From Opitutales bacterium (GTDB lineage Bacteria; Verrucomicrobiota; Verrucomicrobiia; Opitutales; JABSRG01), in contig JBNPEH010000005.1 of assembly GCA_051117635.1 (NCBI GenBank), positions 42,389-106,388 of the forward strand: DNA of 64,000 nt, written 5' to 3'. The notes beneath the pieces were generated by a model. The model was not told the origin of the DNA. It saw only the letters and a program-made list of their open reading frames with translations, and searched no databases. Positions within the stretch are counted from its first letter, which is position 1. Each line of letters opens with the position of its first letter. This document shows, one piece after another, positions 8,491 to 38,723 of this stretch. The translations under genes were made by a program, and so were the position numbers.

Positions 8491-8667
8491 GGCAACCGCG
8501 ACAGTGGGTACGCGTGCCCGGAGGTTCAAGCCGATGGTGGCGCCCCTTCCTTAAAGCCTTGCGGGAAAGTACCGATGGAAGGGAATTGGCGCTTGAACCG
8601 GGTCGCACGCGCTCCGTAAAGAGGTGGCCTTCCTGCGATTCCGCCTGTAGCCCATTCGCTTTTTATC

Positions 8668-9390
8668 ATGCCCAAAACCGCCCCCAAACTCAGCTGGTGC
8701 CGTGTGCGCCTCGGTGAAGACATGAACTGGTGGGTCGAGGAAATCAGCGACGAGGTCCACTGGGATGTGGACGGACTCAGCATCCTCGATCCGCGGCAGA
8801 TTCAGTATATTCTCGAATTGATCGAGCCCTTGACCGAGTACGGTTATCAGGAGTCCCTCTTTGAGGCGGCCTTCTATCCCTTCACGATCAAGACGGAGCT
8901 CAAGGACGGGAAGATCGAGTTGGCGCGGTCCAATGAATCCTTTCTCGAGAGCGATGAACCGATGTTCGCGCTACCAGACGTGATGGACGAGGAGAAGGGG
9001 CCTTACGCCGATTTCCTCAACCACATCACACGGCTGCGGGTGAAGCTGCTCAACGACCTCATCGACTTTAAGCAGAATCTGACCGTCGATGAACTGGAGG
9101 AGGAAATCCGGGAGAACGAGAATAACGAGTTCATGGAAGGCCGGGCCGTGCATTTCTTCACCGAGATCACCTCCATCCTCGAATACGTGCCGGAAGGTTA
9201 CGAGCTCGACAAGGAGGAGGTCGAAGATACCGACGACGACGAGGAGGAAGAAATCGACGAGGATTTCCCCGATGTCGAAGAGTCCGAGGAGAAGATCGAA
9301 GAGGACGAAACGATGAAGTGGGACGACGACGAGGACGAGGAGACCGAGGACGAGAACGAGGAGACCGAAGACGAGGAAAAAGAAAAGTAA
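8668..9390 (+). CDS. Hypothetical protein with an extremely acidic C-terminal tail
   Basis: 240-aa ORF with no family I recognise. About two thirds of the last 60 residues are D/E (DTDDDEEEEIDEDF...DDDEDEETEDENEETEDEEKEK). Alternative ATG at 8722. Confidence 0.6.
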   Translation: MPKTAPKLSWCRVRLGEDMNWWVEEISDEVHWDVDGLSILDPRQIQYILELIEPLTEYGYQESLFEAAFYPFTIKTELKDGKIELARSNESFLESDEPMFALPDVMDEEKGPYADFLNHITRLRVKLLNDLIDFKQNLTVDELEEEIRENENNEFMEGRAVHFFTEITSILEYVPEGYELDKEEVEDTDDDEEEEIDEDFPDVEESEEKIEEDETMKWDDDEDEETEDENEETEDEEKEK

Positions 9391-29441: not shown

Positions 29442-30983
29442 GTGTCCGATCTCAGCGTTAAAGTCCGTCACCTGACCGTTTCCGATTTTCCCGACCTTCG
29501 TGAGGCGATGGAGCTTTCCTATGCCGGCATCGATACCGAGCTGTGGAACCGCAAGGAATTGAGCCGTCTGTTGAAAAAGTTTCCGGAGGGCCAGGTCGCC
29601 ATCGAGGTGAACGGCAAGGCCGTCGGCTGCGCCCTTGCCATCATTGTCGACTACAGCCGGTTCGGGGATACGCATACCTACGACCAGATCACGGCAAACG
29701 ATACCTTCACCACCCACGACCCGGACGGCGATGTGCTCTACGGAATCGAGGTATTTGTGCATCCGGAATACCGCGGCATGCGCCTCGCCCGGCGGTTGTA
29801 CGAGGCCCGCAAGGAGCTGTGCGACGCCCTCAACCTGCGTGGCATTATTCTGGGGGGCCGGATTCCCGGCTATCGGAATCACAGGGAGGAGCTCAGCCCG
29901 CGCGAGTATATTCAGAAGGTGGAGATGCGGGAGCTGTACGACCCCATCCTCACCTTCCAGCTCGCCAATGGATTTCACGTGCGGAAGGTGCTCAAGGCCT
30001 ATCTCGAAGGGGATTCCCATTCAGGTGAATATGCCACGCTGCTGGAATGGAATAACATCTACTACGAGGAAAAGCCGCAGCTGTTGAACGCCCCCAAGTC
30101 GGAGATCCGTCTCGGTCTCGTCCAATGGGGGATGCGGCCCAGCGACAAGCTGGAAACGGTCCTGGACCAGGCGGAGTACTTCATCGACACGGTCTCGGAC
30201 TACCAGTCGGATTTCATTCTGTTTCCTGAATTTTTCAGCGCACCGCTGATGGTCGGCTTCAACCACCTGAGCGAGCCGGAGGCCATGCGGAAACTGGCGG
30301 AATTCACCCGGCCGATTCTTGAGCAGATGCAGAATTGGGCGGTGGCCTACAATATCAACATCATCGCAGGCAGCCTGCCGGTGGTCGACGGGGACCATCT
30401 CTACAATGAAGCCACGCTCCTGCGCCGGGACGGCTCGTCCGACAGCATCCGCAAGATCCACATCACGCCCAGCGAGCAGGAGGCCCAGGGGGTCATGGGT
30501 GGCGAGCGAATCCGTACGCTACAGACCGACTGCGGCCCGATCGGTATCCTGATTTGCTACGATTGCGAGTTTCCCGAACTCAGCCGACTCCTGCGCGACG
30601 AGGGGATGCGCATCCTGTTCGTGCCTTACATGACCGACATGCAGACAGGATACAACCGGGTACGGATTTGCTCCCAGGCCCGGGCGATCGAAAACGAGGT
30701 GTATGTCGCCATTGCCGGCTCGGTCGGTAACCTGCCGCGGGTCAATAACATGGATATCCAGTTTTCGCAGTCGGCGGTGTTCAGCCCGAGTGATTTTTCC
30801 TTCCCCAGCAACGGTGTCGTGGCGGAGGCCACACCCAACACCGAAATGGTACTGATGGCCGACGTGAACCTCGATTTACTCCGTGAGCTTCACGAGAGCG
30901 GAGCCGTCCGGAATATCAAGGATCGACGGATGGACCTGTACCGCCTCGCCTGGCGGGAAACGTCAGACGGCAAATCGGCCTGA
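29442..30983 (+). CDS. Bifunctional GNAT N-acetyltransferase / carbon-nitrogen hydrolase (nitrilase superfamily) fusion
   Basis: N-terminal GNAT (IEVFVHPEYRGMRLARRLY). C-terminal CN-hydrolase Glu-Lys-Cys triad context (LFPEFF, IRKIHITP, ICYDCEFPE). GTG start. Confidence 0.85.
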   Translation: MSDLSVKVRHLTVSDFPDLREAMELSYAGIDTELWNRKELSRLLKKFPEGQVAIEVNGKAVGCALAIIVDYSRFGDTHTYDQITANDTFTTHDPDGDVLYGIEVFVHPEYRGMRLARRLYEARKELCDALNLRGIILGGRIPGYRNHREELSPREYIQKVEMRELYDPILTFQLANGFHVRKVLKAYLEGDSHSGEYATLLEWNNIYYEEKPQLLNAPKSEIRLGLVQWGMRPSDKLETVLDQAEYFIDTVSDYQSDFILFPEFFSAPLMVGFNHLSEPEAMRKLAEFTRPILEQMQNWAVAYNINIIAGSLPVVDGDHLYNEATLLRRDGSSDSIRKIHITPSEQEAQGVMGGERIRTLQTDCGPIGILICYDCEFPELSRLLRDEGMRILFVPYMTDMQTGYNRVRICSQARAIENEVYVAIAGSVGNLPRVNNMDIQFSQSAVFSPSDFSFPSNGVVAEATPNTEMVLMADVNLDLLRELHESGAVRNIKDRRMDLYRLAWRETSDGKSA

Positions 30984-31375: not shown

Positions 31376-32970
31376 GGCAACGACGAGTCGGGCGCCTCTC
31401 CGGAGGACGCCAGAGGAAGGGTAAAGCGAAGTTGGGTACCTTCGCCGATTTGACTTTGACAGTGGATTGAGCCACCCAGCCTTTCGATAATTTGCTGGCA
31501 GATAGTAAGACCCATTCCAATGCCTGAATAGCGCCTGGAAAGCGAATCGTCAACCTGTGTAAACGGTCTGAAAATTGCCTGCAGCTTGTCCTGAGGAATA
31601 CCGATTCCGGTGTCGACCACCTCCCCGACCAGGGAGGGCACGCCCCCATCCTCCTCCACACTGAAATGGACGCTAATCCAACCGGATGGGGTAAATTTGT
31701 AGGCGTTACTCAGGAGGTTGGACAGAATCTGACGAAACCGGTTGGGCTCGGTCCGGATTGTTTCCGGACACTCATCGGCGAAGACGACCGAACACTTGAG
31801 GCCTTTCTGGGCGATCTGCCCCCGATAAATGCCCACGACCTCATCGACGGTTTCTTTCAGGGGTAAGGACCGATAGGCAAACGGGGCCGTCTCACTGCCA
31901 AGGCGTGTGTACTCCAGGATGGAGTCGACCAGCTTCAACAGGTCCTCCCCACCCTCCTGGATGATTTGAACATATTCGGCCTGTTCCTCCGACAGGTCGC
32001 CCAGGCCCAGCAGTTCGGCGAAACCGATCACGGCATTCAGCGGCGTCCGCAGTTCGTGGCTCATCACCGCCAGGAAATTGGTCTTCACGCGGTTGGCCAC
32101 TTCGGCGTTCATCGCCATTTCCTGAGCCTCCTCCATCTTGCGGTTGAGCGCCTCGTTCAGGCGGGTGGTTTCCGCAATGAGCGCCTGCTGGTGCCGCTGG
32201 GCGTCCGTCTCAGCCGTGATATCCAATAGAATCGTTCCGATGCCGAGGGTCTGATCCCTGTCGACGCCCACCGGAAAACGCGTGACGCGCACCCGGCGTT
32301 CCCGGCCATCGGGAACATGCATGGCGAGGTCTTCGCGGACCAGACCATCGCCGGCCCGAATGCGTTGGGCCGTTGCTTCAAAACCGGGCTTCAATCCCAC
32401 CGGGAGCATCTCCCCGATGGGCTGTCCCCTCAGGCGATGAGGGGCGCTGTCCGGACACACCAGCCGGCAGAAAGCATCATTGGCCAGGACGATGTGGCCG
32501 GAGCTGTCCTCCATCACCAGACCGATCGAGGCATGTTGAAGAAAAGCGGTTAACAGCCGGGTCTCCTGTTGCAGGTCCTGGTTGAGGTTCCGAATGGCCG
32601 TAATGTCGCGAAGAGAAACCAAAACAAGGCGCTGAACAGGCTCGTAAGCCAGGTTCCATACGGACCAGCGCTCGCTATCCGGTTTCTGTCGCAGCCGCAG
32701 CACCTGGTTCTGCCGGGACCGGCCGCGCAGCACGCCCGCCCACATCTCTTCGAAGCCCTCGCGGTCCGCGTCCACCACCCAGTCCAGCACGGCCCCGGGC
32801 CGGCTGAAGTCCGGATCCGGAGCCTGGTTGAGCAACCGCGCGAGTGGACGATTGGCCTTCACCAGCGATCCATCCTCCGCAAAGAAACCCATGGGGTCGC
32901 TCGTCAGGTCGAAAAAGGCTCCCTCCAGGTCGGCGGTGGGAGGTGGATTTGGGGGGCCGGATGGGTTCAA
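31372..32970 (-). CDS. Cytoplasmic multi-PAS sensor histidine kinase
   Basis: PAS-like repeats. H-box FLAVMSHELRTPLNAVIGF. HATPase NLLSNAYKFT, DTGIGIP, GIGMGLTI. TTG start in the ORF track. Confidence 0.9.
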   Translation of the reverse strand: MNPSGPPNPPPTADLEGAFFDLTSDPMGFFAEDGSLVKANRPLARLLNQAPDPDFSRPGAVLDWVVDADREGFEEMWAGVLRGRSRQNQVLRLRQKPDSERWSVWNLAYEPVQRLVLVSLRDITAIRNLNQDLQQETRLLTAFLQHASIGLVMEDSSGHIVLANDAFCRLVCPDSAPHRLRGQPIGEMLPVGLKPGFEATAQRIRAGDGLVREDLAMHVPDGRERRVRVTRFPVGVDRDQTLGIGTILLDITAETDAQRHQQALIAETTRLNEALNRKMEEAQEMAMNAEVANRVKTNFLAVMSHELRTPLNAVIGFAELLGLGDLSEEQAEYVQIIQEGGEDLLKLVDSILEYTRLGSETAPFAYRSLPLKETVDEVVGIYRGQIAQKGLKCSVVFADECPETIRTEPNRFRQILSNLLSNAYKFTPSGWISVHFSVEEDGGVPSLVGEVVDTGIGIPQDKLQAIFRPFTQVDDSLSRRYSGIGMGLTICQQIIERLGGSIHCQSQIGEGTQLRFTLPLASSGEAPDSSLP

Positions 32971-33021
32971 GCAGCGTTTCCTCCGGAAATGACAGGGGCC
33001 AGCGCAGACGTGGAGCCGTCC

Positions 33022-33330
33022 TCAGGTAAGCAGCGTTTGGTCCAGTTGCAGGAGAGTCAAGATTCGCACCAGCATGTCGGGTGGCTCGACCAGACGAAGC
33101 TGTACGTTGCCCGCCGCCAGCCGCCGGTGCAAGGCCAGCAGAACGCCGACGCCGGAGCTGTCGACCAGTTTCACGTGCTCCAGCCTAACCGAACAGACCT
33201 GTACGCCAACCAGATCGAGCCGGTCGATCTCCTTGCGCAGCATGCCGGCGACCGTGCTGTCCAGGGACGGCCCGGCAACCGTGAGCGACAGCGACACGCC
33301 TGATCTGGACGGCTGCAGCAACAAGAGCAC
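33022..33330 (-). CDS. STAS-domain protein (anti-sigma-factor-antagonist-like)
   Basis: LEHVKLVDSSGVGVLLAL...LRLVEPPDMLVRILTLLQLD pattern, 102 aa, GTG start. Lies directly upstream of the PAS kinase. Confidence 0.7.
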   Translation of the reverse strand: MLLLLQPSRSGVSLSLTVAGPSLDSTVAGMLRKEIDRLDLVGVQVCSVRLEHVKLVDSSGVGVLLALHRRLAAGNVQLRLVEPPDMLVRILTLLQLDQTLLT

Positions 33331-33364
33331 TAAACGATGATCGACCGGTATCCGAAGTGCTTAA

Positions 33365-33394
33365 CCTGAACTTCTCACCGGAATCGGGAAAGAG
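33365..33394 (+). repeat. Solo left-end copy of the repeat family in a divergent promoter region
   Basis: cctgaacttctcaccggaatcgggaaagag, flanked by cttaac/gttaag. Confidence 0.5.
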
Positions 33395-33470
33395 CGAGTT
33401 AAGAAGAAAGCGGCGGCAAATCCCCCCTTGCAGTTCGCCCCGCCCTGGCCTTCCCTTTGATTTCTTCCGT

Positions 33471-33989
33471 ATGGCCCGACATGCTCCCGCCCTCCGCCGC
33501 AGCCACACGTCCCGCGATGCCGCCCGGCAACCCGAGATCATCGGCTGGAAGGAGGTCATCAGCCTGCCTGACTGGGGAATCGACGGCCTGATTGCGAAGT
33601 CGGATACCGGAGCCCGCGGCTCCGCCATCGATGTGCGCAACCTGACTGTGCTTTCCGGCGACCGCGTCCGGTTTCATGTGGTGCTGAACCGGCGCGACCG
33701 GGAGAACACCCGGGAAGTGGTCGCACCGATCGCCTCCCGCGTCCGCATCCGTTCCAGCAACGGTCAGATGCAGGAGCGGTATCGGGTCCGGACCCTTTTG
33801 CGCATCGGGCATGTGGAGAAAGAGATCGAGCTGAGTCTCGTCAGCCGGCGCAACATGATCTGCCGTGTCCTCCTGGGACGAAGGGAGTTGTCGGGGGATT
33901 TCCTCGTCGATCCTGAGGCCAAATACCGGTTCGGCCCGCGCAAGCGCCGCCATCCGGCCACCCGCAACCGTACACCCGCAACCGCCTGA
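33471..33989 (+). CDS. Retropepsin-like 'ATP-dependent zinc protease' family protein (RimB-like)
   Basis: IGWKEVISLPDWGIDGLIAKSDTGARGSAIDV...ICRVLLGRR motifs. Lies 5 bp upstream of rimK. Confidence 0.8.
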   Translation: MARHAPALRRSHTSRDAARQPEIIGWKEVISLPDWGIDGLIAKSDTGARGSAIDVRNLTVLSGDRVRFHVVLNRRDRENTREVVAPIASRVRIRSSNGQMQERYRVRTLLRIGHVEKEIELSLVSRRNMICRVLLGRRELSGDFLVDPEAKYRFGPRKRRHPATRNRTPATA

Positions 33990-33994
33990 ATCCC

Positions 33995-35236
33995 ATGCCT
34001 GAGAAACCGTTCCGCATCGCCGTACTCTCCCGAAGCCCGAAAATCTACAGCACCCGACGCATCCTCGAGGCCGCCAGGGCGCGGGGCCACACCGCCAAGG
34101 TTCTGGATACGCTGAAATTCGGCCTCTACGTGGAGTCCAAGTCGCCGGACATGACCTACCGCGGTAAACCGGTGGCGGAGTTTGATGCCGTCATCCCGCG
34201 GATCGGCTCCTCCATCAGTTTTTTCGGAACGGCGGTTGTCCGCCAGTTCGAGCAGATGGGCCTGTTCACGCTCAACCAGTCCAATGGCATCGCCGTTGCG
34301 CGCGACAAGCTCCGGTCCATGCAGGTCCTCAGCCGGCATGACATCGGTATCGCACAATCCGCCTTCGTCCGCGAAAAAGGCGACATCCTCCAGGCGATCG
34401 AACATGTCGGCGGCGGTCCGGTCATCATCAAGCTGCTGGAAGGCACCCAGGGGGTGGGCGTGATCCTGGCCGAGACGGCCAAGATGGCCGAAACAGTCAT
34501 TGAAACACTACAGAGCACGCAGCAGAATGTCCTGCTGCAGAAGTTCGTTTCCGAGAGCAAGGGCAAGGACATCCGGGCCTTTGTCATCGGGGACCGGGTG
34601 GTTGGCGCCATGCGCCGGCGGGCCCAGGGCAACGAATTCCGCAGCAATGTGCACCGCGGCGGATCCGTTGAAACGGTGGAGCTGGACCCGGAATACGAAC
34701 GCACCGCCGTCCGGGCCGCCAAGATCATCGGGTTGCGTGTCGCCGGGGTGGACATGCTGGAGGGCCGGGAAGGACCGGTCATCATGGAGGTCAACGCCTC
34801 TCCCGGCCTGGAAGGCATCGAGGCCGCCACCGGCCGCGATATCGCCGGGGAGATTGTCGATTATCTCATCGAGCACACGCGCTACGGGGATCTCGACCTG
34901 CGCCAGCGCCTGGCCTTCGCCCGCGGTTATGTGGTGGCCGATTTCGGCATCCGGGCCAACTCCCCGCTGATCGGAAAATCCCTGGCCGAGTGCGGCCTCC
35001 GGGAACGCGACATCATCGTGATGGACATCAACCGGAACGGGCAGCATATCCCCGCCCCGAAGGGCGATGACACCATCCTGGAGGGCGACGTCCTGCTTTG
35101 CTACGGACCGCGCCTCGCCCTGCGCGAAGTCCTGCCTGCTCTGGTCCGGCCCCAACGCCGGCGGGCCGCCCCCAAGGCCAAGAAGAAGGCGGCCGCGCCC
35201 CGCAAAAAAAAGCCGGATGAAGGAGACCGCGCATGA
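33995..35236 (+). CDS. rimK: RimK-family alpha-L-glutamate ligase fused to a C-terminal RCK_C (TrkA-C) domain and a Lys-rich tail
   Basis: ATP-grasp IIKLLEGTQGVGV, QKFVSESKGKDIRAFVIG, FRSNVHRGG, GVDMLEGREGPVIMEVNASPGLEGIE. Then ...SPLIGKSLAECGLRERDIIVMDINRNGQHIPAPKGDDTILEGDVLLCYGP (RCK_C pattern). Then PKAKKKAAAPRKKKP. Confidence 0.9.
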   Translation: MPEKPFRIAVLSRSPKIYSTRRILEAARARGHTAKVLDTLKFGLYVESKSPDMTYRGKPVAEFDAVIPRIGSSISFFGTAVVRQFEQMGLFTLNQSNGIAVARDKLRSMQVLSRHDIGIAQSAFVREKGDILQAIEHVGGGPVIIKLLEGTQGVGVILAETAKMAETVIETLQSTQQNVLLQKFVSESKGKDIRAFVIGDRVVGAMRRRAQGNEFRSNVHRGGSVETVELDPEYERTAVRAAKIIGLRVAGVDMLEGREGPVIMEVNASPGLEGIEAATGRDIAGEIVDYLIEHTRYGDLDLRQRLAFARGYVVADFGIRANSPLIGKSLAECGLRERDIIVMDINRNGQHIPAPKGDDTILEGDVLLCYGPRLALREVLPALVRPQRRRAAPKAKKKAAAPRKKKPDEGDRA

Positions 35237-36309
35237 CGGCGGCCCGCGGCATCTTTACCTTTGCGGGGCATCGCATTCCCCGAGGGCAAAGCCGAAACTG
35301 CCGTATCAAGATTTCCGAGACCTATACGGGCGCCCCGATCGAAATCCCCGTTCGGGTCATCACCGGTCGCGATCCCGGCCCGACCTTGTTCGTCACCGCG
35401 GCAGTCCACGGTGACGAGGTCAACGGTGTCGGCATCGTGCACGACCTGATGTTCGCCCGGCCGCCGCGACTCCGGAACGGCGCGCTCATCATGGTACCGG
35501 TGGTCAACTGCTTCGGATTCGAAAGCCATGAACGGTATCTGCCCGACCGGCGCGACCTGAACCGCAGTTTCCCCGGCAATGTGGACGGCAGCCTGGCCAG
35601 TCGCCTGGCCGCCACCGTGATGTCCGAAGTGGTGGCCCGGAGCGACTACGGCATCGACCTGCACTCGGCTGCCACCCAGCGCACCAATTTCCCTAATGTC
35701 CGAGCGGACCTCGACCTGGGCGGCACACGCCGGCTGGCCCGCGCTTTCGGGGCGGCCCTCATCGTGGATGGCAAGGGCCCCACCGGATCGCTGCGCCGGG
35801 AAGCCTGCAAGGCCGGTTGCCCGACGATCATCCTGGAGGCGGGCGAACCGGGAAAAATCGAACCCTCGGTCCTGGAGATCGGGGTGAGGGGCGTGCGCAA
35901 CGTCCTGATCGACCTCGGCATGATTGACGGCACACGGACGACACCGCCCTTCCAGACCTATATCCGGAAAACACTCTGGGTACGGTCCCCCGGCGCCGGC
36001 TTGCTGAAATTCCATATCGGCCCCGGGGACTTCCTGGAGGCCGGCGAGGCGATCGCCACGCTGTCTCCCATCCTCGGCTCGGACACGCAGACGCTCCATG
36101 CGCCGGACAACGCCATCGTCCTGAGTGTCGCCACCCTGCCGGCGGTGAAACCCGGGGAACCGGTCTGCCTGCTGGCCTTCCCCACCCGGCGCTTCAGTTC
36201 GCTCAAGCGCCAGGCGGAATCGTCCAGTCGCGGCATGCACAACCGCGCGCGCACCCACCTGGCCACCAACATTCACGTGGTCCAGCCGGTGGAATCCGAC
36301 GAGGACTGA
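35233..36309 (+). CDS. Succinylglutamate desuccinylase/aspartoacylase (AstE/AspA) family zinc hydrolase
   Basis: AAVHGDEVNG, DLNRSFPG, GIDLHSA motifs. ATGA overlap with the rimK stop. Confidence 0.85.
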   Translation: MTAARGIFTFAGHRIPRGQSRNCRIKISETYTGAPIEIPVRVITGRDPGPTLFVTAAVHGDEVNGVGIVHDLMFARPPRLRNGALIMVPVVNCFGFESHERYLPDRRDLNRSFPGNVDGSLASRLAATVMSEVVARSDYGIDLHSAATQRTNFPNVRADLDLGGTRRLARAFGAALIVDGKGPTGSLRREACKAGCPTIILEAGEPGKIEPSVLEIGVRGVRNVLIDLGMIDGTRTTPPFQTYIRKTLWVRSPGAGLLKFHIGPGDFLEAGEAIATLSPILGSDTQTLHAPDNAIVLSVATLPAVKPGEPVCLLAFPTRRFSSLKRQAESSSRGMHNRARTHLATNIHVVQPVESDED

Positions 36310-36463
36310 TTCCCCTGTTTGGAAAAAATTCCGGTCGCCAGGCAAAGCACAACCAGGCCTTGGTTCTTCGACGAAAATCGTGAGTGGCAGCAAGGACCCT
36401 GACTGAGGATTAGGCCCTAATTTCACGTTGCCACCGTACCCGCTTTGGGGACAGGGTATTAAT

Positions 36464-36799
36464 ATGCAGATTGAGCTGGATAAGCACGGGAAGGCCGATC
36501 TCATACGAATGACCGGTCGCCTCGACTCCGCCTGCTCCCGCGAGGCGGAGGAGCGCGTGTTCGCTTTGCTGGGGGAATCGCCGCAAAACGACCTGCTGGT
36601 GGATTGCACGAATCTGGAATACATCAGCAGCGCCGGCCTGCGGGTCCTGCTCAAAGCCGGCAAACACTTGCACGGCACCGGCTGCGGCCTGACTCTTATC
36701 GGCCTGCGCGGGCCGGTAGCCCGGGTGTTCGAGATGTCCGGCTTCGACAAGTTGTTTCCGATGCTGGACGCCTTGCCGGGGCAGGAAGCGCCACGCTGA
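36464..36799 (+). CDS. STAS-domain anti-sigma-factor antagonist (SpoIIAA/RsbV-like)
   Basis: MTGRLDS...DCTNLEYISSAGLRVLL...LIGLRGPVARVFEMSGFDKLF. ATG at 36464. Confidence 0.85.
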   Translation: MQIELDKHGKADLIRMTGRLDSACSREAEERVFALLGESPQNDLLVDCTNLEYISSAGLRVLLKAGKHLHGTGCGLTLIGLRGPVARVFEMSGFDKLFPMLDALPGQEAPR

Positions 36800-36860
36800 C
36801 AGCAGCACGTGTTTCCGACCCGGCCGTGCCCCCCTGCGTAGGGCATGACGCCCTCGAGCC

Positions 36861-38723
36861 TCAGGGCAGTCGCTTGACCAACAGCAGGTGGTTTCGCCCA
36901 CGCTGTCGCCGATAGCGCAAGTCATCCATCAACTGGCGGACCACGTAAACGCCCAGGCCCCCGATCGGACGTTTTTCAAGGTCGCCGCCCAAATCGGGGT
37001 GACGGGCCTGGACCAATGGATTGAAGGGGGGCCCGCAGTCGATGATCCGGGATTCGATCCGGTCGGGCAGGGCCAGAATCTGAATCTGGACAGCGGGCTG
37101 CCCCTTAATGGGCACCGCCCGCTTACCGGCGCCAAACCCGTGCTCGATCGTGTTCACGACCACCTCTTCGAGACAGAGTGTCAGGTCGTGTTGCACGGCT
37201 TCCGGCCAGTTGCAGGCGACGCCCAGTTCGGCGAGTTCGGTTCCCAATTTCGAAACGGCATCCAACGCGGGTGCCAGATCGAAGACCCGCACCTGGCGCT
37301 CCCCGTCGAACGACGTGGCCGCAGCCGTGCCGTCCCCGTGGAACAACACCCGCAGAAGCGTGATGTCATCCTCCAGATGGTCGGCCTGGCCGAAGGATTC
37401 GATGGCCCTCCCGACGGCAGCCATCTCCAACCCGTTCTTCTCCTGATCCAACAGGCGCCGTAACCGTTCCAGGCCGAAGGGCTTTCCCTCCGCGTCCAGC
37501 CGGTCGGTTGCGCCGTCCGTGTAGAGGAACAACCGGTCACCGGGCGCCAGGGACAGATCCTGGTTTTCATAGCGAAACTCGGGCTCCACGCCGAGGGGCA
37601 GGCCGCTTTGCACCGGCAGGGGCATCCAGTCCCGGCCACCCCGGGAGACCAACCCGGGATCATGGCCCGCATTGGCATAGGTCAGCTCTCCCGTGCGACA
37701 GTTCAGGATGCCCGCAAACAGGGTGACAAACATGCAGTTCCGGTTGTTCTCGCACAGGACCCGGTTGGCATGCGCCAGAATATCCGCCGGCCGGTCGAAC
37801 AGGGCGGATCCGGAACTCAGACAGGTCATGGTGCCCGCCATGAACAGGGCCGCCGCCACCCCTTTGTCACTGACGTCCCCGATCGCGAAAAACAGCCGGT
37901 CATCCGCCAGAAGGGCGTAGCTGTAGAGATCGCCCCCCGCCTGATAGGCCGTCCGGTTGAACAGGTCCAGCGAGACGCGCGGATCGGAGAGAACGCCGCC
38001 CCAGGGAGACGGCAGCATCGATTCCTGGATCTGCCCGGCCACGCGCAGCATACCTTCGACCCGTTCCCGCGCCTTGACCTCTTCGCGGAACTGCCGGATC
38101 TGGGCGCCAAGCCGGTCGTCCATGTCCAGGAAGGCCCGAGCCAGGGCACCCACTTCATCCCCCCGTTGTTCGGCGACCGTGCGGACCGGCTGGATGGACC
38201 AGGGATCCGGCGTCGTCTTCTTTTCCGTATCCGCCAGCGGCGTATAGCCAACGAGCGCCCGGGCCAGCGTGTTGATCGGCGCCTTCACCTCGCGGTTACT
38301 GTGCTCCAGCCGGGCAATCAGCAGCTCCACGATAAACCGGTGCACGGCTGCTGCCACCAGGGGCGCATCTGTTTCCATGCGCCGCAGGGCTTTGCCCGTC
38401 AGTGCAAAGAGCCGAACCGGTTCGAGCGCCTCCACCGTGGCCCCGCGTTTTTCCCGGCGGTAGAGCCCCATTTCCCCGACGGCTTCCCCCGGTTCACAAA
38501 TCCGCAAGGTCACGCCTTCGCCGCCTGTCGTCTCAATGAAGATCCGGAGCCTCCCCGCAACCACGAAAAAGAGAGCATCGGAAACGGCGCCTTCGCGAAA
38601 CAGGAGGGACCCCGCGTCCAGATCCAGCCGATCCAGGAACGGCAACAGACCCGCTTCCCCGTCCAGGGGCTCGAGAAACCGTTTCAGCGCGGCAGGCAGA
38701 AGCTGGGTGTCCGGGGTCGCCAT
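36861..38723 (-). CDS. cNMP-binding / PP2C (SpoIIE-type) phosphatase / RsbW-like HATPase fusion protein
   Basis: N-terminal cNMP-binding fold (LLFREGAVSDALFFVVAGRLRI...GEAVGEMGL). PP2C region (GGDLYSY...FAIGDVSDKGVAAALFM...AGHDPG...LYTDG). C-terminal NTIEHG, IIDCGPPFNP, GGLGVYVVRQL. Start at ATG 38723, because the 854-aa ORF extension overlaps copA. Confidence 0.85.
   Translation of the reverse strand: MATPDTQLLPAALKRFLEPLDGEAGLLPFLDRLDLDAGSLLFREGAVSDALFFVVAGRLRIFIETTGGEGVTLRICEPGEAVGEMGLYRREKRGATVEALEPVRLFALTGKALRRMETDAPLVAAAVHRFIVELLIARLEHSNREVKAPINTLARALVGYTPLADTEKKTTPDPWSIQPVRTVAEQRGDEVGALARAFLDMDDRLGAQIRQFREEVKARERVEGMLRVAGQIQESMLPSPWGGVLSDPRVSLDLFNRTAYQAGGDLYSYALLADDRLFFAIGDVSDKGVAAALFMAGTMTCLSSGSALFDRPADILAHANRVLCENNRNCMFVTLFAGILNCRTGELTYANAGHDPGLVSRGGRDWMPLPVQSGLPLGVEPEFRYENQDLSLAPGDRLFLYTDGATDRLDAEGKPFGLERLRRLLDQEKNGLEMAAVGRAIESFGQADHLEDDITLLRVLFHGDGTAAATSFDGERQVRVFDLAPALDAVSKLGTELAELGVACNWPEAVQHDLTLCLEEVVVNTIEHGFGAGKRAVPIKGQPAVQIQILALPDRIESRIIDCGPPFNPLVQARHPDLGGDLEKRPIGGLGVYVVRQLMDDLRYRRQRGRNHLLLVKRLP

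Follow-up and report, generated by a model that had tools for sequence, protein, structure and literature searches.

A RimK–RCK_C fusion linked with a RimB-like retropepsin and an AstE-like hydrolase: a probable poly-α-glutamate turnover module in several bacterial phyla

The ATP-grasp ligase RimK attaches α-linked Glu residues to the ribosomal protein bS6 (RpsF) and also synthesizes free poly-α-Glu (PMC11957791). Its counterpart RimB has been experimentally established both as the poly-Glu-specific eraser and as an activator of RimK (PMC7343187, PMC11957791); this endopeptidase, in which the role of a DTG motif has been demonstrated, requires at least 5–6 contiguous Glu residues and boosts poly-α-Glu synthesis by RimK (PMC11957791), and leaves a Glu tail of about four residues (PMC10092738). 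In cyanophycin metabolism, the AstE-family enzyme CphZ is encoded in clusters with the ATP-grasp polymerase CphA1 and cyanophycinase, and hydrolyzes the dipeptide product (PMC9974463). Very few polyglutamylation systems are known from bacteria; that of RimK and RimB is one of them, and has been studied almost solely in Pseudomonas and Escherichia coli. Herein, we describe a locus in a 64,000-nucleotide stretch (hereafter the window) of contig JBNPEH010000005.1 from an Opitutales bacterium, in which three genes at 33471–36309 encode a RimB-like protease, a RimK carrying an additional C-terminal RCK_C domain, and an AstE/AspA-like hydrolase. The locus is a widespread, conserved, and unstudied version of the RimK system, and we consider it rather probable that it constitutes a self-contained module for poly-α-L-glutamate turnover, consisting of a writer, an endo-eraser, and a finisher.

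All three genes are located on the forward strand and are tightly packed. The RimB-like gene (33471..33989) is separated by a 5-bp gap from rimK (33995..35236; 413 amino acids), the junction reading 'ctga atccc atg', and rimK in turn shares an ATGA overlap with the AstE-like gene (35233..36309; 358 amino acids), where the junction reads 'cgc atg acg'. The open reading frames (ORFs) and junction sequences hence confirmed the packing described in an earlier interpretation of this DNA made without database searches (the sequence-only reading). For the RimB-like gene, an alternative GTG start is present at 33357; since the alignments with homologues start about 20 residues past the ATG at 33471, the latter was regarded as a reasonable start. 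Scanning for sigma-70-like promoters and terminators between the three genes yielded none above shuffle expectation. The window contained no Rfam match, even when 32900–36900 was scanned permissively, and the application of Rfam to 13 related loci found one tRNA and no other RNA element. A search for expression evidence found no sequencing run that covers the module. The isoelectric points (pI) of all three proteins are basic (9.1–11.6), which suits polyanionic substrates. Two ORFs antisense to rimK and the AstE-like gene (35101–36846 and 34156–34830, both on the reverse strand) were set aside as shadow ORFs of the kind typical of high-GC DNA, since their recurrence in relatives simply mirrors that of the sense genes.

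The product of the first gene (172 amino acids counted from the ATG at 33471; pI 11.6) is a retropepsin-type aspartic endopeptidase, matching PF05618 with 69.3 bits against a cutoff of 27. The Pfam name of this family, 'Zn_protease', is a misnomer, as its members are RimB-like retropepsins. The catalytic DTG motif, as read from the sequence (33603..33611, forward strand), is embedded in K-S-D-T-G at 33597–33611 with the Lys residue conserved, and lines up with the corresponding DTG in 9g58, 9g59, and 2pma, which are retropepsin-like homologues of known structure. Among the NCBIfam models, RimB scored best with 89.4 bits, followed by RloA3 (49), RloA2 (32), and RloA (30). Furthermore, inspection of the N-terminus, MARHAPALRRSHTSRDAARQ, found no hydrophobic stretch, and thus the protein resembles RimB, which is cytoplasmic, and not the Rlo paralogues, which are secreted. 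The family match and the intact DTG motif supported the RimB-like call of the sequence-only reading, which had left this protein as a processing protease in a vague sense; RimB is instead the published poly-Glu eraser and RimK activator.

The core of the second protein (34013..34867, forward strand) comprises a pre-ATP-grasp domain at residues 7–99 (PF18030 Rimk_N, E 3e-36) and an ATP-grasp domain at residues 102–291 (PF08443, E 1e-58). It reached 248.9 bits with the TIGR00768 rimK_fam model, exceeding the cutoff of 143.4, and aligned with the Pseudomonas RimK (7qyr) with 352 bits over residues 7–293 at approximately 64% identity, and with the E. coli RimK with 296 bits. Judged by sequence similarity, the core is a genuine RimK orthologue. 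Its nearest homologues, which are 60–75% identical, were found in Coraliomargarita, Pelagicoccus, and Pelagisphaera of the Opitutales/Puniceicoccales group of Verrucomicrobiota.

Following this core, residues 319–379 (34949..35131, forward strand) form an RCK_C/TrkA_C domain, a putative ligand sensor, which matched PF02080 with 47.7 bits (cutoff 27; E 1.5e-12). The nearest NCBIfam models of this part were the RCK_C domains of TrkA and of K+/H+ antiporters. An AlphaFold model of residues 291–413 had a predicted local distance difference test (pLDDT) score of 89–95 across the RCK_C domain and low values in the remaining tail. A Foldseek search with this model, in which TM denotes the template modeling score, listed RCK_C structures as all of its 50 best PDB matches, with 3jxo (the TrkA protein TM1088; TM 0.76) at the top and PH0236, MthK, KhtT with c-di-AMP, KtrA/KtrC, and BusR among the others. 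A regulatory sensor with ligand gating is plausible, the candidate ligands being c-di-AMP, cations, nucleotides, and acidic amino acids. The protein ends in a polybasic tail (residues 382–413; 35138..35233, forward strand) with 13 Lys/Arg per 32 residues, whose low pLDDT suggests that it would be disordered. Both the fused RCK_C domain and the Lys/Arg-rich tail had been noticed by the sequence-only reading; the RCK_C pattern that it quoted and the tail are both present, and the domain was confirmed by the domain search and the structural matches of the model. A Lys/Arg-rich tail with 7–21 basic residues per 16–38 amino acids follows RCK_C in nearly all fusion orthologues across the phyla, and the motif RRxRVKKLPKQPI is common to the tails of actinobacterial fusions (Nocardioides, Pimelobacter, and Agromyces; survey loci L022–L037). 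At the sequence level, this shared motif suggests a defined binding function beyond charge alone. The tail of plain RimK is short and KTKTRGKG-like.

The third protein was assigned to the AstE/AspA family on the basis of PF24827 AstE_AspA_cat (E 6e-34) and a match to PDB 3cdx (E 2e-24). The HGDE zinc motif (35407..35418, forward strand) provides His59 and Glu62, which together with His144 form the zinc triad; this triad and the catalytic Glu205 are intact, and are invariant in two independent alignments consisting of 11 AstE-like sequences from three or more phyla and of 26 sequences. The intact triad and the Pfam match bore out the family call of the sequence-only reading. Glu202, the Asn110-Arg111 pair, and eight Arg residues were also invariant in both alignments, and such an Arg-rich set fits a substrate having multiple carboxylates. 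The structural model (predicted TM score, pTM, 0.82) adopts a two-domain fold in which a small β-domain is kept beside the large α/β domain, and Foldseek aligned it at TM 0.71–0.81 with DoeB (6twl/6twm), 3cdx, and 2qj8. CphZ formed the next group of matches (TM 0.64, 14–16% identity), and the M14 cytosolic carboxypeptidases (CCPs) were distant fold matches (4b6z, E 2e-6 and TM approximately 0.41; CCP5 8v3n, E approximately 5e-6). None of the curated models claimed the protein: DoeB gave 82 bits against a cutoff of 402.7, aspartoacylase (ASPA) gave 20 against 180, and no AstE model of NCBIfam was matched. We rejected membership in CphZ, given the low identity and TM score and the neighboring rimK/rimB rather than cphA/cphB, although the enzyme may function in a CphZ-like manner, and also membership in the CCP-type M14 deglutamylases, to which only distant matches were obtained. 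AstE liberates glutamate from N-succinylglutamate, and therefore a Glu-releasing specificity would be natural for this family. Hydrolysis of oligo- or di-α-glutamate is predicted as the most likely activity of the AstE-like enzyme.

We surveyed how often the fusion and the three-gene order occur, a check proposed along with the sequence-only reading. In the forward survey, one genome per species was scanned, the neighbors being identified by tblastn with the window proteins, and 37 RimK–RCK_C loci (53–67% identity) were collected from Verrucomicrobiota, Actinomycetota (Nocardioides, Pimelobacter, Serinicoccus, Agromyces, and Ilumatobacter), Myxococcota (Polyangia), Planctomycetota, Armatimonadota, and others. 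A RimB-like gene was adjacent in 35 of the 37 loci, and an AstE-like gene in 22. In the reverse direction, a metagenome scan was seeded by the AstE-like alignment; in the best 80 of at least 597 loci, rimK adjoined the AstE-like gene in 57, with 34 being fused and 23 plain. When only the loci with at least 2.5 kb on each flank were considered, rimK was present at 17 out of 24. With B, K, and A denoting the RimB-like gene, rimK, and the AstE-like gene, approximately eight gene orders were observed over both surveys: B>K>A, <A<B K>, B>A>K, A>B>K, K>A <B, K>B>A, <K B>A, and A> <K, the last three of which came from the reverse survey. B>K>A is the order in Opitutales and the divergent <A<B K> that in Actinomycetota. 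In an all-against-all comparison, these three genes were also the only part of the window neighborhood that recurred in related loci. The reciprocal linkage thus persists through repeated rearrangement across phyla, strongly indicating that the three genes form a functional unit, and since the same genes occur together in dozens of unrelated genomes, the arrangement is not due to chance. It is accordingly highly improbable that the AstE-like gene lies beside rimK by coincidence and that the added RCK_C part is a remnant without function: approximately 40% of the fusion loci do lack an AstE-like gene beside rimK, but this explanation accounts neither for the linkage nor for the 35–60% identity of RCK_C and tail across phyla and the invariance of the catalytic residues.

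Several observations from these surveys concern individual genomes. An adjacent AstE-like gene was missing in the close relative Coraliomargarita parva, one Phycisphaerales metagenome-assembled genome (MAG), Polyangia, Agromyces, and Ilumatobacter. In C. parva, the slot downstream of rimK (L001:9274-10380) is occupied by a ParE/RHH toxin-antitoxin pair and a DUF772 transposase, which suggests that the AstE-like gene was lost or displaced by a mobile element. The Candidatus Pelagisphaera MAG JBNMOQ01 contains two B>K>A modules (L006 and L008), whose RimK proteins are 66% and 60% identical to that of the window, and downstream of each module come an MscS-like and a CorA-like gene. The MAG labels of L007, L009, and L010 (Zhongshania aliphaticivorans, Fibrobacteraceae, and Nitrospiraceae) are odd given that both the genes and their order resemble those of Opitutales; mis-binning of these contigs is possible, and taxon counts from MAG titles need care.

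The fusion clade is large and extends over several phyla. PF02080 was present in all of the 120 best RimK homologues; among the 150 best representatives of 50%-identity clusters, 12 aligned through the RCK_C region, and several others had an N-terminal extension of approximately 130–165 amino acids which, judged by length, fits the published RimB–RimK hybrids. A neighbor-joining tree of the RimK cores, indicative since constructed without bootstrap, placed nearly all fusions in one clade, within which the RCK_C domain and tail are conserved at the identities given above, and grouped the plain RimK proteins linked to RimB and AstE-like genes with the Pseudomonas RimK, apart from the fusions. 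Plain RimK loci of this type were found in Gammaproteobacteria (Chromatiaceae, Sedimenticolaceae, and Thiosocius teredinicola), and thus the link with the AstE-like gene is not confined to the fusion clade. Two relatives labeled 'Euryarchaeota archaeon' MAG (L004/L005) encode a RimK homologue of 46% core identity with a 110-amino-acid C-terminal extension, which matched the RCK_C part weakly (28%) and gave no Pfam hit; this gene lies beside an integrase of the phage type, and neither a RimB nor an AstE gene is found in its vicinity.

On the basis of the above, we propose the following mechanism. As the writer, RimK would use ATP to polymerize Glu on a protein C-terminus, classically that of bS6, and/or as free poly-α-Glu. 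The RCK_C domain would take the place of the RimA/c-di-GMP input of Pseudomonas, probably tuning the ligase by a small ligand that reflects cation or nucleotide status, and the polybasic tail probably serves to hold on to acidic chains or to ribosomal RNA. As the endo-eraser, a dimer of the RimB-like retropepsin would cut runs of at least 5–6 Glu into short stubs and oligo-Glu, and would also activate RimK. RimB cannot dispose of short oligo-Glu or the stub. As the finisher, the AstE-like enzyme would remove C-terminal Glu residues from the short pieces, as far as Glu-Glu and possibly the stub, and recycle free glutamate, much as CphZ completes the degradation of cyanophycin after cyanophycinase. 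The AstE-like subfamily would thereby likely carry out the last step of poly-Glu breakdown, providing a function for many genes annotated as 'predicted deacylase' or 'succinylglutamate desuccinylase/aspartoacylase family'. The sequence-only reading had proposed a reversible writer/eraser module; the idea of a unit with reversible glutamylation held, as indicated by the linkage, and its assignment of roles did not, because the eraser, which it saw in the AstE-like enzyme, is already provided by RimB and the CCPs are distant matches.

Some of the results weigh against this turnover module. The RimB-like protein did not reach the NCBIfam RimB equivalog cutoff of 200 bits, and RimK, with 324.9 bits, narrowly missed that of PRK10446 (331). 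The top characterized relative of the AstE-like protein by score was DoeB, an N-acetyl-diaminobutyrate enzyme acting on a non-peptide substrate. With respect to gene content, rimK was absent at 7 of the 24 well-flanked AstE-like loci, and the lack of an adjacent copy in approximately 40% of the fusion loci, including that of C. parva, indicates that the AstE-like gene is accessory or encoded elsewhere. Furthermore, to our knowledge, neither the AstE-like subfamily nor the RimK–RCK_C fusions have been biochemically characterized.

An alternative assignment, in which the AstE-like enzyme is a protein deglutamylase that trims the Glu tail of bS6 in a stepwise manner like the eukaryotic M14 CCPs and RimB performs only processing, appears unlikely. 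It draws on the M14-like fold and the presence of CCP-type carboxypeptidases (4b6z and CCP5 8v3n) among the structural matches, and an exo-activity on the tail would fill a real gap, namely the stub of about four Glu residues left by RimB. However, the TM score with the CCP is weak compared with the 0.64–0.8 obtained with DoeB, 3cdx, and CphZ, and the experimentally established eraser is RimB. The model also retains the small β-domain beside the catalytic domain, and in aspartoacylase this domain is thought to limit access to the active site. Moreover, the characterized AstE/AspA enzymes (AstE, ASPA, and DoeB, by general knowledge, and CphZ; PMC9974463) all act on small N-acyl amino acids or dipeptides. 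As these enzymes cleave small substrates and the CCPs are distant, an oligo- or di-Glu hydrolase is likelier than a deglutamylase of protein tails.

In a further reading, the AstE-like enzyme acts on a small metabolite unrelated to poly-Glu, such as an N-acyl-Glu/Asp or an acidic dipeptide resembling N-acetylaspartylglutamate (NAAG), and the fused RimK produces a small acidic compound and no polymer, as in the mammalian combination of RIMKLA/B, of the RimK family, with aspartoacylase, whose substrates are N-acetylaspartate derivatives. AstE, ASPA, and DoeB are indeed small-molecule amidohydrolases, and RimK-family ligases synthesize NAAG, β-citrylglutamate, and the glutamyl tails of F420 and tetrahydromethanopterin. 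DoeB in addition participates in the catabolism of an osmolyte, ectoine, and the recurrent neighbors of the present loci include osmotic and cation-related genes. We nevertheless regard this explanation as quite improbable, because the ligase core is very close to RimK (352 bits, approximately 64%) and far from MptN, CofF, and LysX, and because a protease of the poly-Glu-specific type, for which small-molecule metabolism offers no evident use, accompanies it at 35 of the 37 loci.

The recurrent neighbors are consistent with a further role of the poly-Glu turnover module. In an unbiased clustering of neighbors over 125 related loci, CorA-like Mg2+ transporters (14 loci) and MscS/MscK channels (11 loci) were the top recurrent families of recognizable function, and MgtE and ammonium transporters occurred in four loci each; as internal controls, queries for ABC-ATPase and response regulator returned four loci and one locus, respectively. 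This enrichment of transporters and channels is a rough estimate that is not set against a genome-wide background. The genes for CorA (L013/L016/L017, L062/L064/L068, and L112), MgtE (L014, L070, and L120), and MscS/MscK (L006, L008, L106, L125, and L070) recur next to the module, often as immediate neighbors 24–430 bp away, and rimB of T. teredinicola is overlapped at its start by a gene of the MscS family. Within the 64-kb window, no gene for CorA, MgtE, MscS/MscK, or an ammonium transporter was found. One neighbor cluster, 'Unk3', had no Pfam match and only fragmentary hits, and was treated as spurious.

In the literature, the Rlo retropepsin paralogues are associated with a hypo-osmotic phenotype (PMC12239564), and brackish genomes are enriched in rimK over marine ones (PMC10219603). 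These reports, together with the recurrent CorA/MgtE/MscS/MscK neighbors and a sensor of the K+-transport type, suggest that poly-Glu turnover is tied to cation or osmotic homeostasis, with the Mg2+ transporters and mechanosensitive channels making this a testable link. As a tentative extension, it is possible that poly-α-Glu, either free or on bS6, acts inside the cell as a regulated polyanion, buffering cations (Mg2+ and K+) as well as osmotic strength, and is made by the RCK_C-gated RimK and unmade by RimB and the AstE-like enzyme. If this is true, the RCK_C domain would allow RimK to sense cation or second-messenger status and to polymerize Glu on demand, and RimB and the AstE-like enzyme would return the polymer to glutamate as an osmolyte. 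Such a function would account for the fusion with a K+-type sensor, the neighboring transporter and channel genes, and the Rlo phenotype.

In the window, the module is flanked by partner-switching and two-component genes. STAS genes are located at 33022-33330 (reverse strand) and 36428-36799 (forward strand), and a fusion of a cyclic-nucleotide-monophosphate (cNMP)-binding domain, a SpoIIE phosphatase, and HATPase_c_2 at 36861 to about 38650 (reverse strand); the two STAS proteins and this fusion make up a partner-switching set, and a PAS histidine kinase and a response regulator are also encoded near the module. The listed ORF of the cNMP-binding–SpoIIE fusion comprises 854 amino acids, of which the Pfam matches begin at residue 269, and its true start probably lies later, as the listed start falls within a Cu-ATPase gene on the opposite strand. 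The sequence-only reading had placed the module in a signaling island. This island is incidental and was rejected as a part of the system, as none of its STAS, SpoIIE, histidine kinase, and response regulator genes recurred in the related loci. Approximately 2.5 kb upstream of the module, 29442-30983 (forward strand) encodes a 513-amino-acid fusion of a GNAT acetyltransferase and a carbon-nitrogen hydrolase of the nitrilase superfamily. A long acidic run (DDDEEEE) occurs in a single ORF of the window, at 8620-9390 (forward strand), whose product ends in ...TEDEEKEK; this ORF lies too far from the module for its product to be suggested as a substrate. No rpsF gene encoding bS6 was found in the window or in the retrieved related loci, and a bS6 profile built from two actinobacterial sequences matched just Streptomyces and Mycobacterium proteins (96 amino acids, with a short, non-acidic end) and no fusion-carrying genera.

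Among the described systems, the locus is closest to RimABK of Pseudomonas, in which rimK is likewise co-operonic with a DTG retropepsin having no signal peptide. With the RimK cores being approximately 64% identical, the same chemistry would be expected from sequence, that is, ATP-dependent addition of α-linked Glu and poly-Glu-specific endoproteolysis. In contrast, the c-di-GMP phosphodiesterase RimA of the Pseudomonas system has no equivalent in this locus, which instead possesses the RCK_C domain, a long polybasic tail, and a co-conserved AstE-like enzyme; the built-in sensor and tail would replace the control by c-di-GMP and RimA. A text search of PMC11957791 and PMC10092738 found no mention of an AstE-like hydrolase or a TrkA domain, and a literature search found no relevant account of RimK with either, with a prior computational mention being possible. 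The RCK_C part shares its fold and Pfam family with the domains of TrkA, KtrA/C, KhtT, MthK, and BusR, the model deviating from KhtT and KtrA by a root-mean-square deviation of 1.1–2.5 Å; its fusion partner, however, is a soluble enzyme instead of a channel, a transporter, or a transcription factor, and no RCK_N partner domain accompanies it. The polyglutamylation of tubulin by TTLL and CCP is similar in that an ATP-grasp-type Glu ligase is opposed by a hydrolase of the zinc carboxypeptidase fold to give a reversible acidic tail, but the AstE-like protein is weakly CCP-like (TM approximately 0.41) and the demonstrated bacterial eraser is the aspartic protease RimB. The cyanophycin system follows the same three-part logic as the module proposed herein, namely an ATP-grasp polymerase, a polymer-specific peptidase, and a zinc-dependent finisher of the AstE/AspA family, and differs in using β-Asp-Arg rather than α-linked poly-Glu and the serine-type cyanophycinase rather than a retropepsin.

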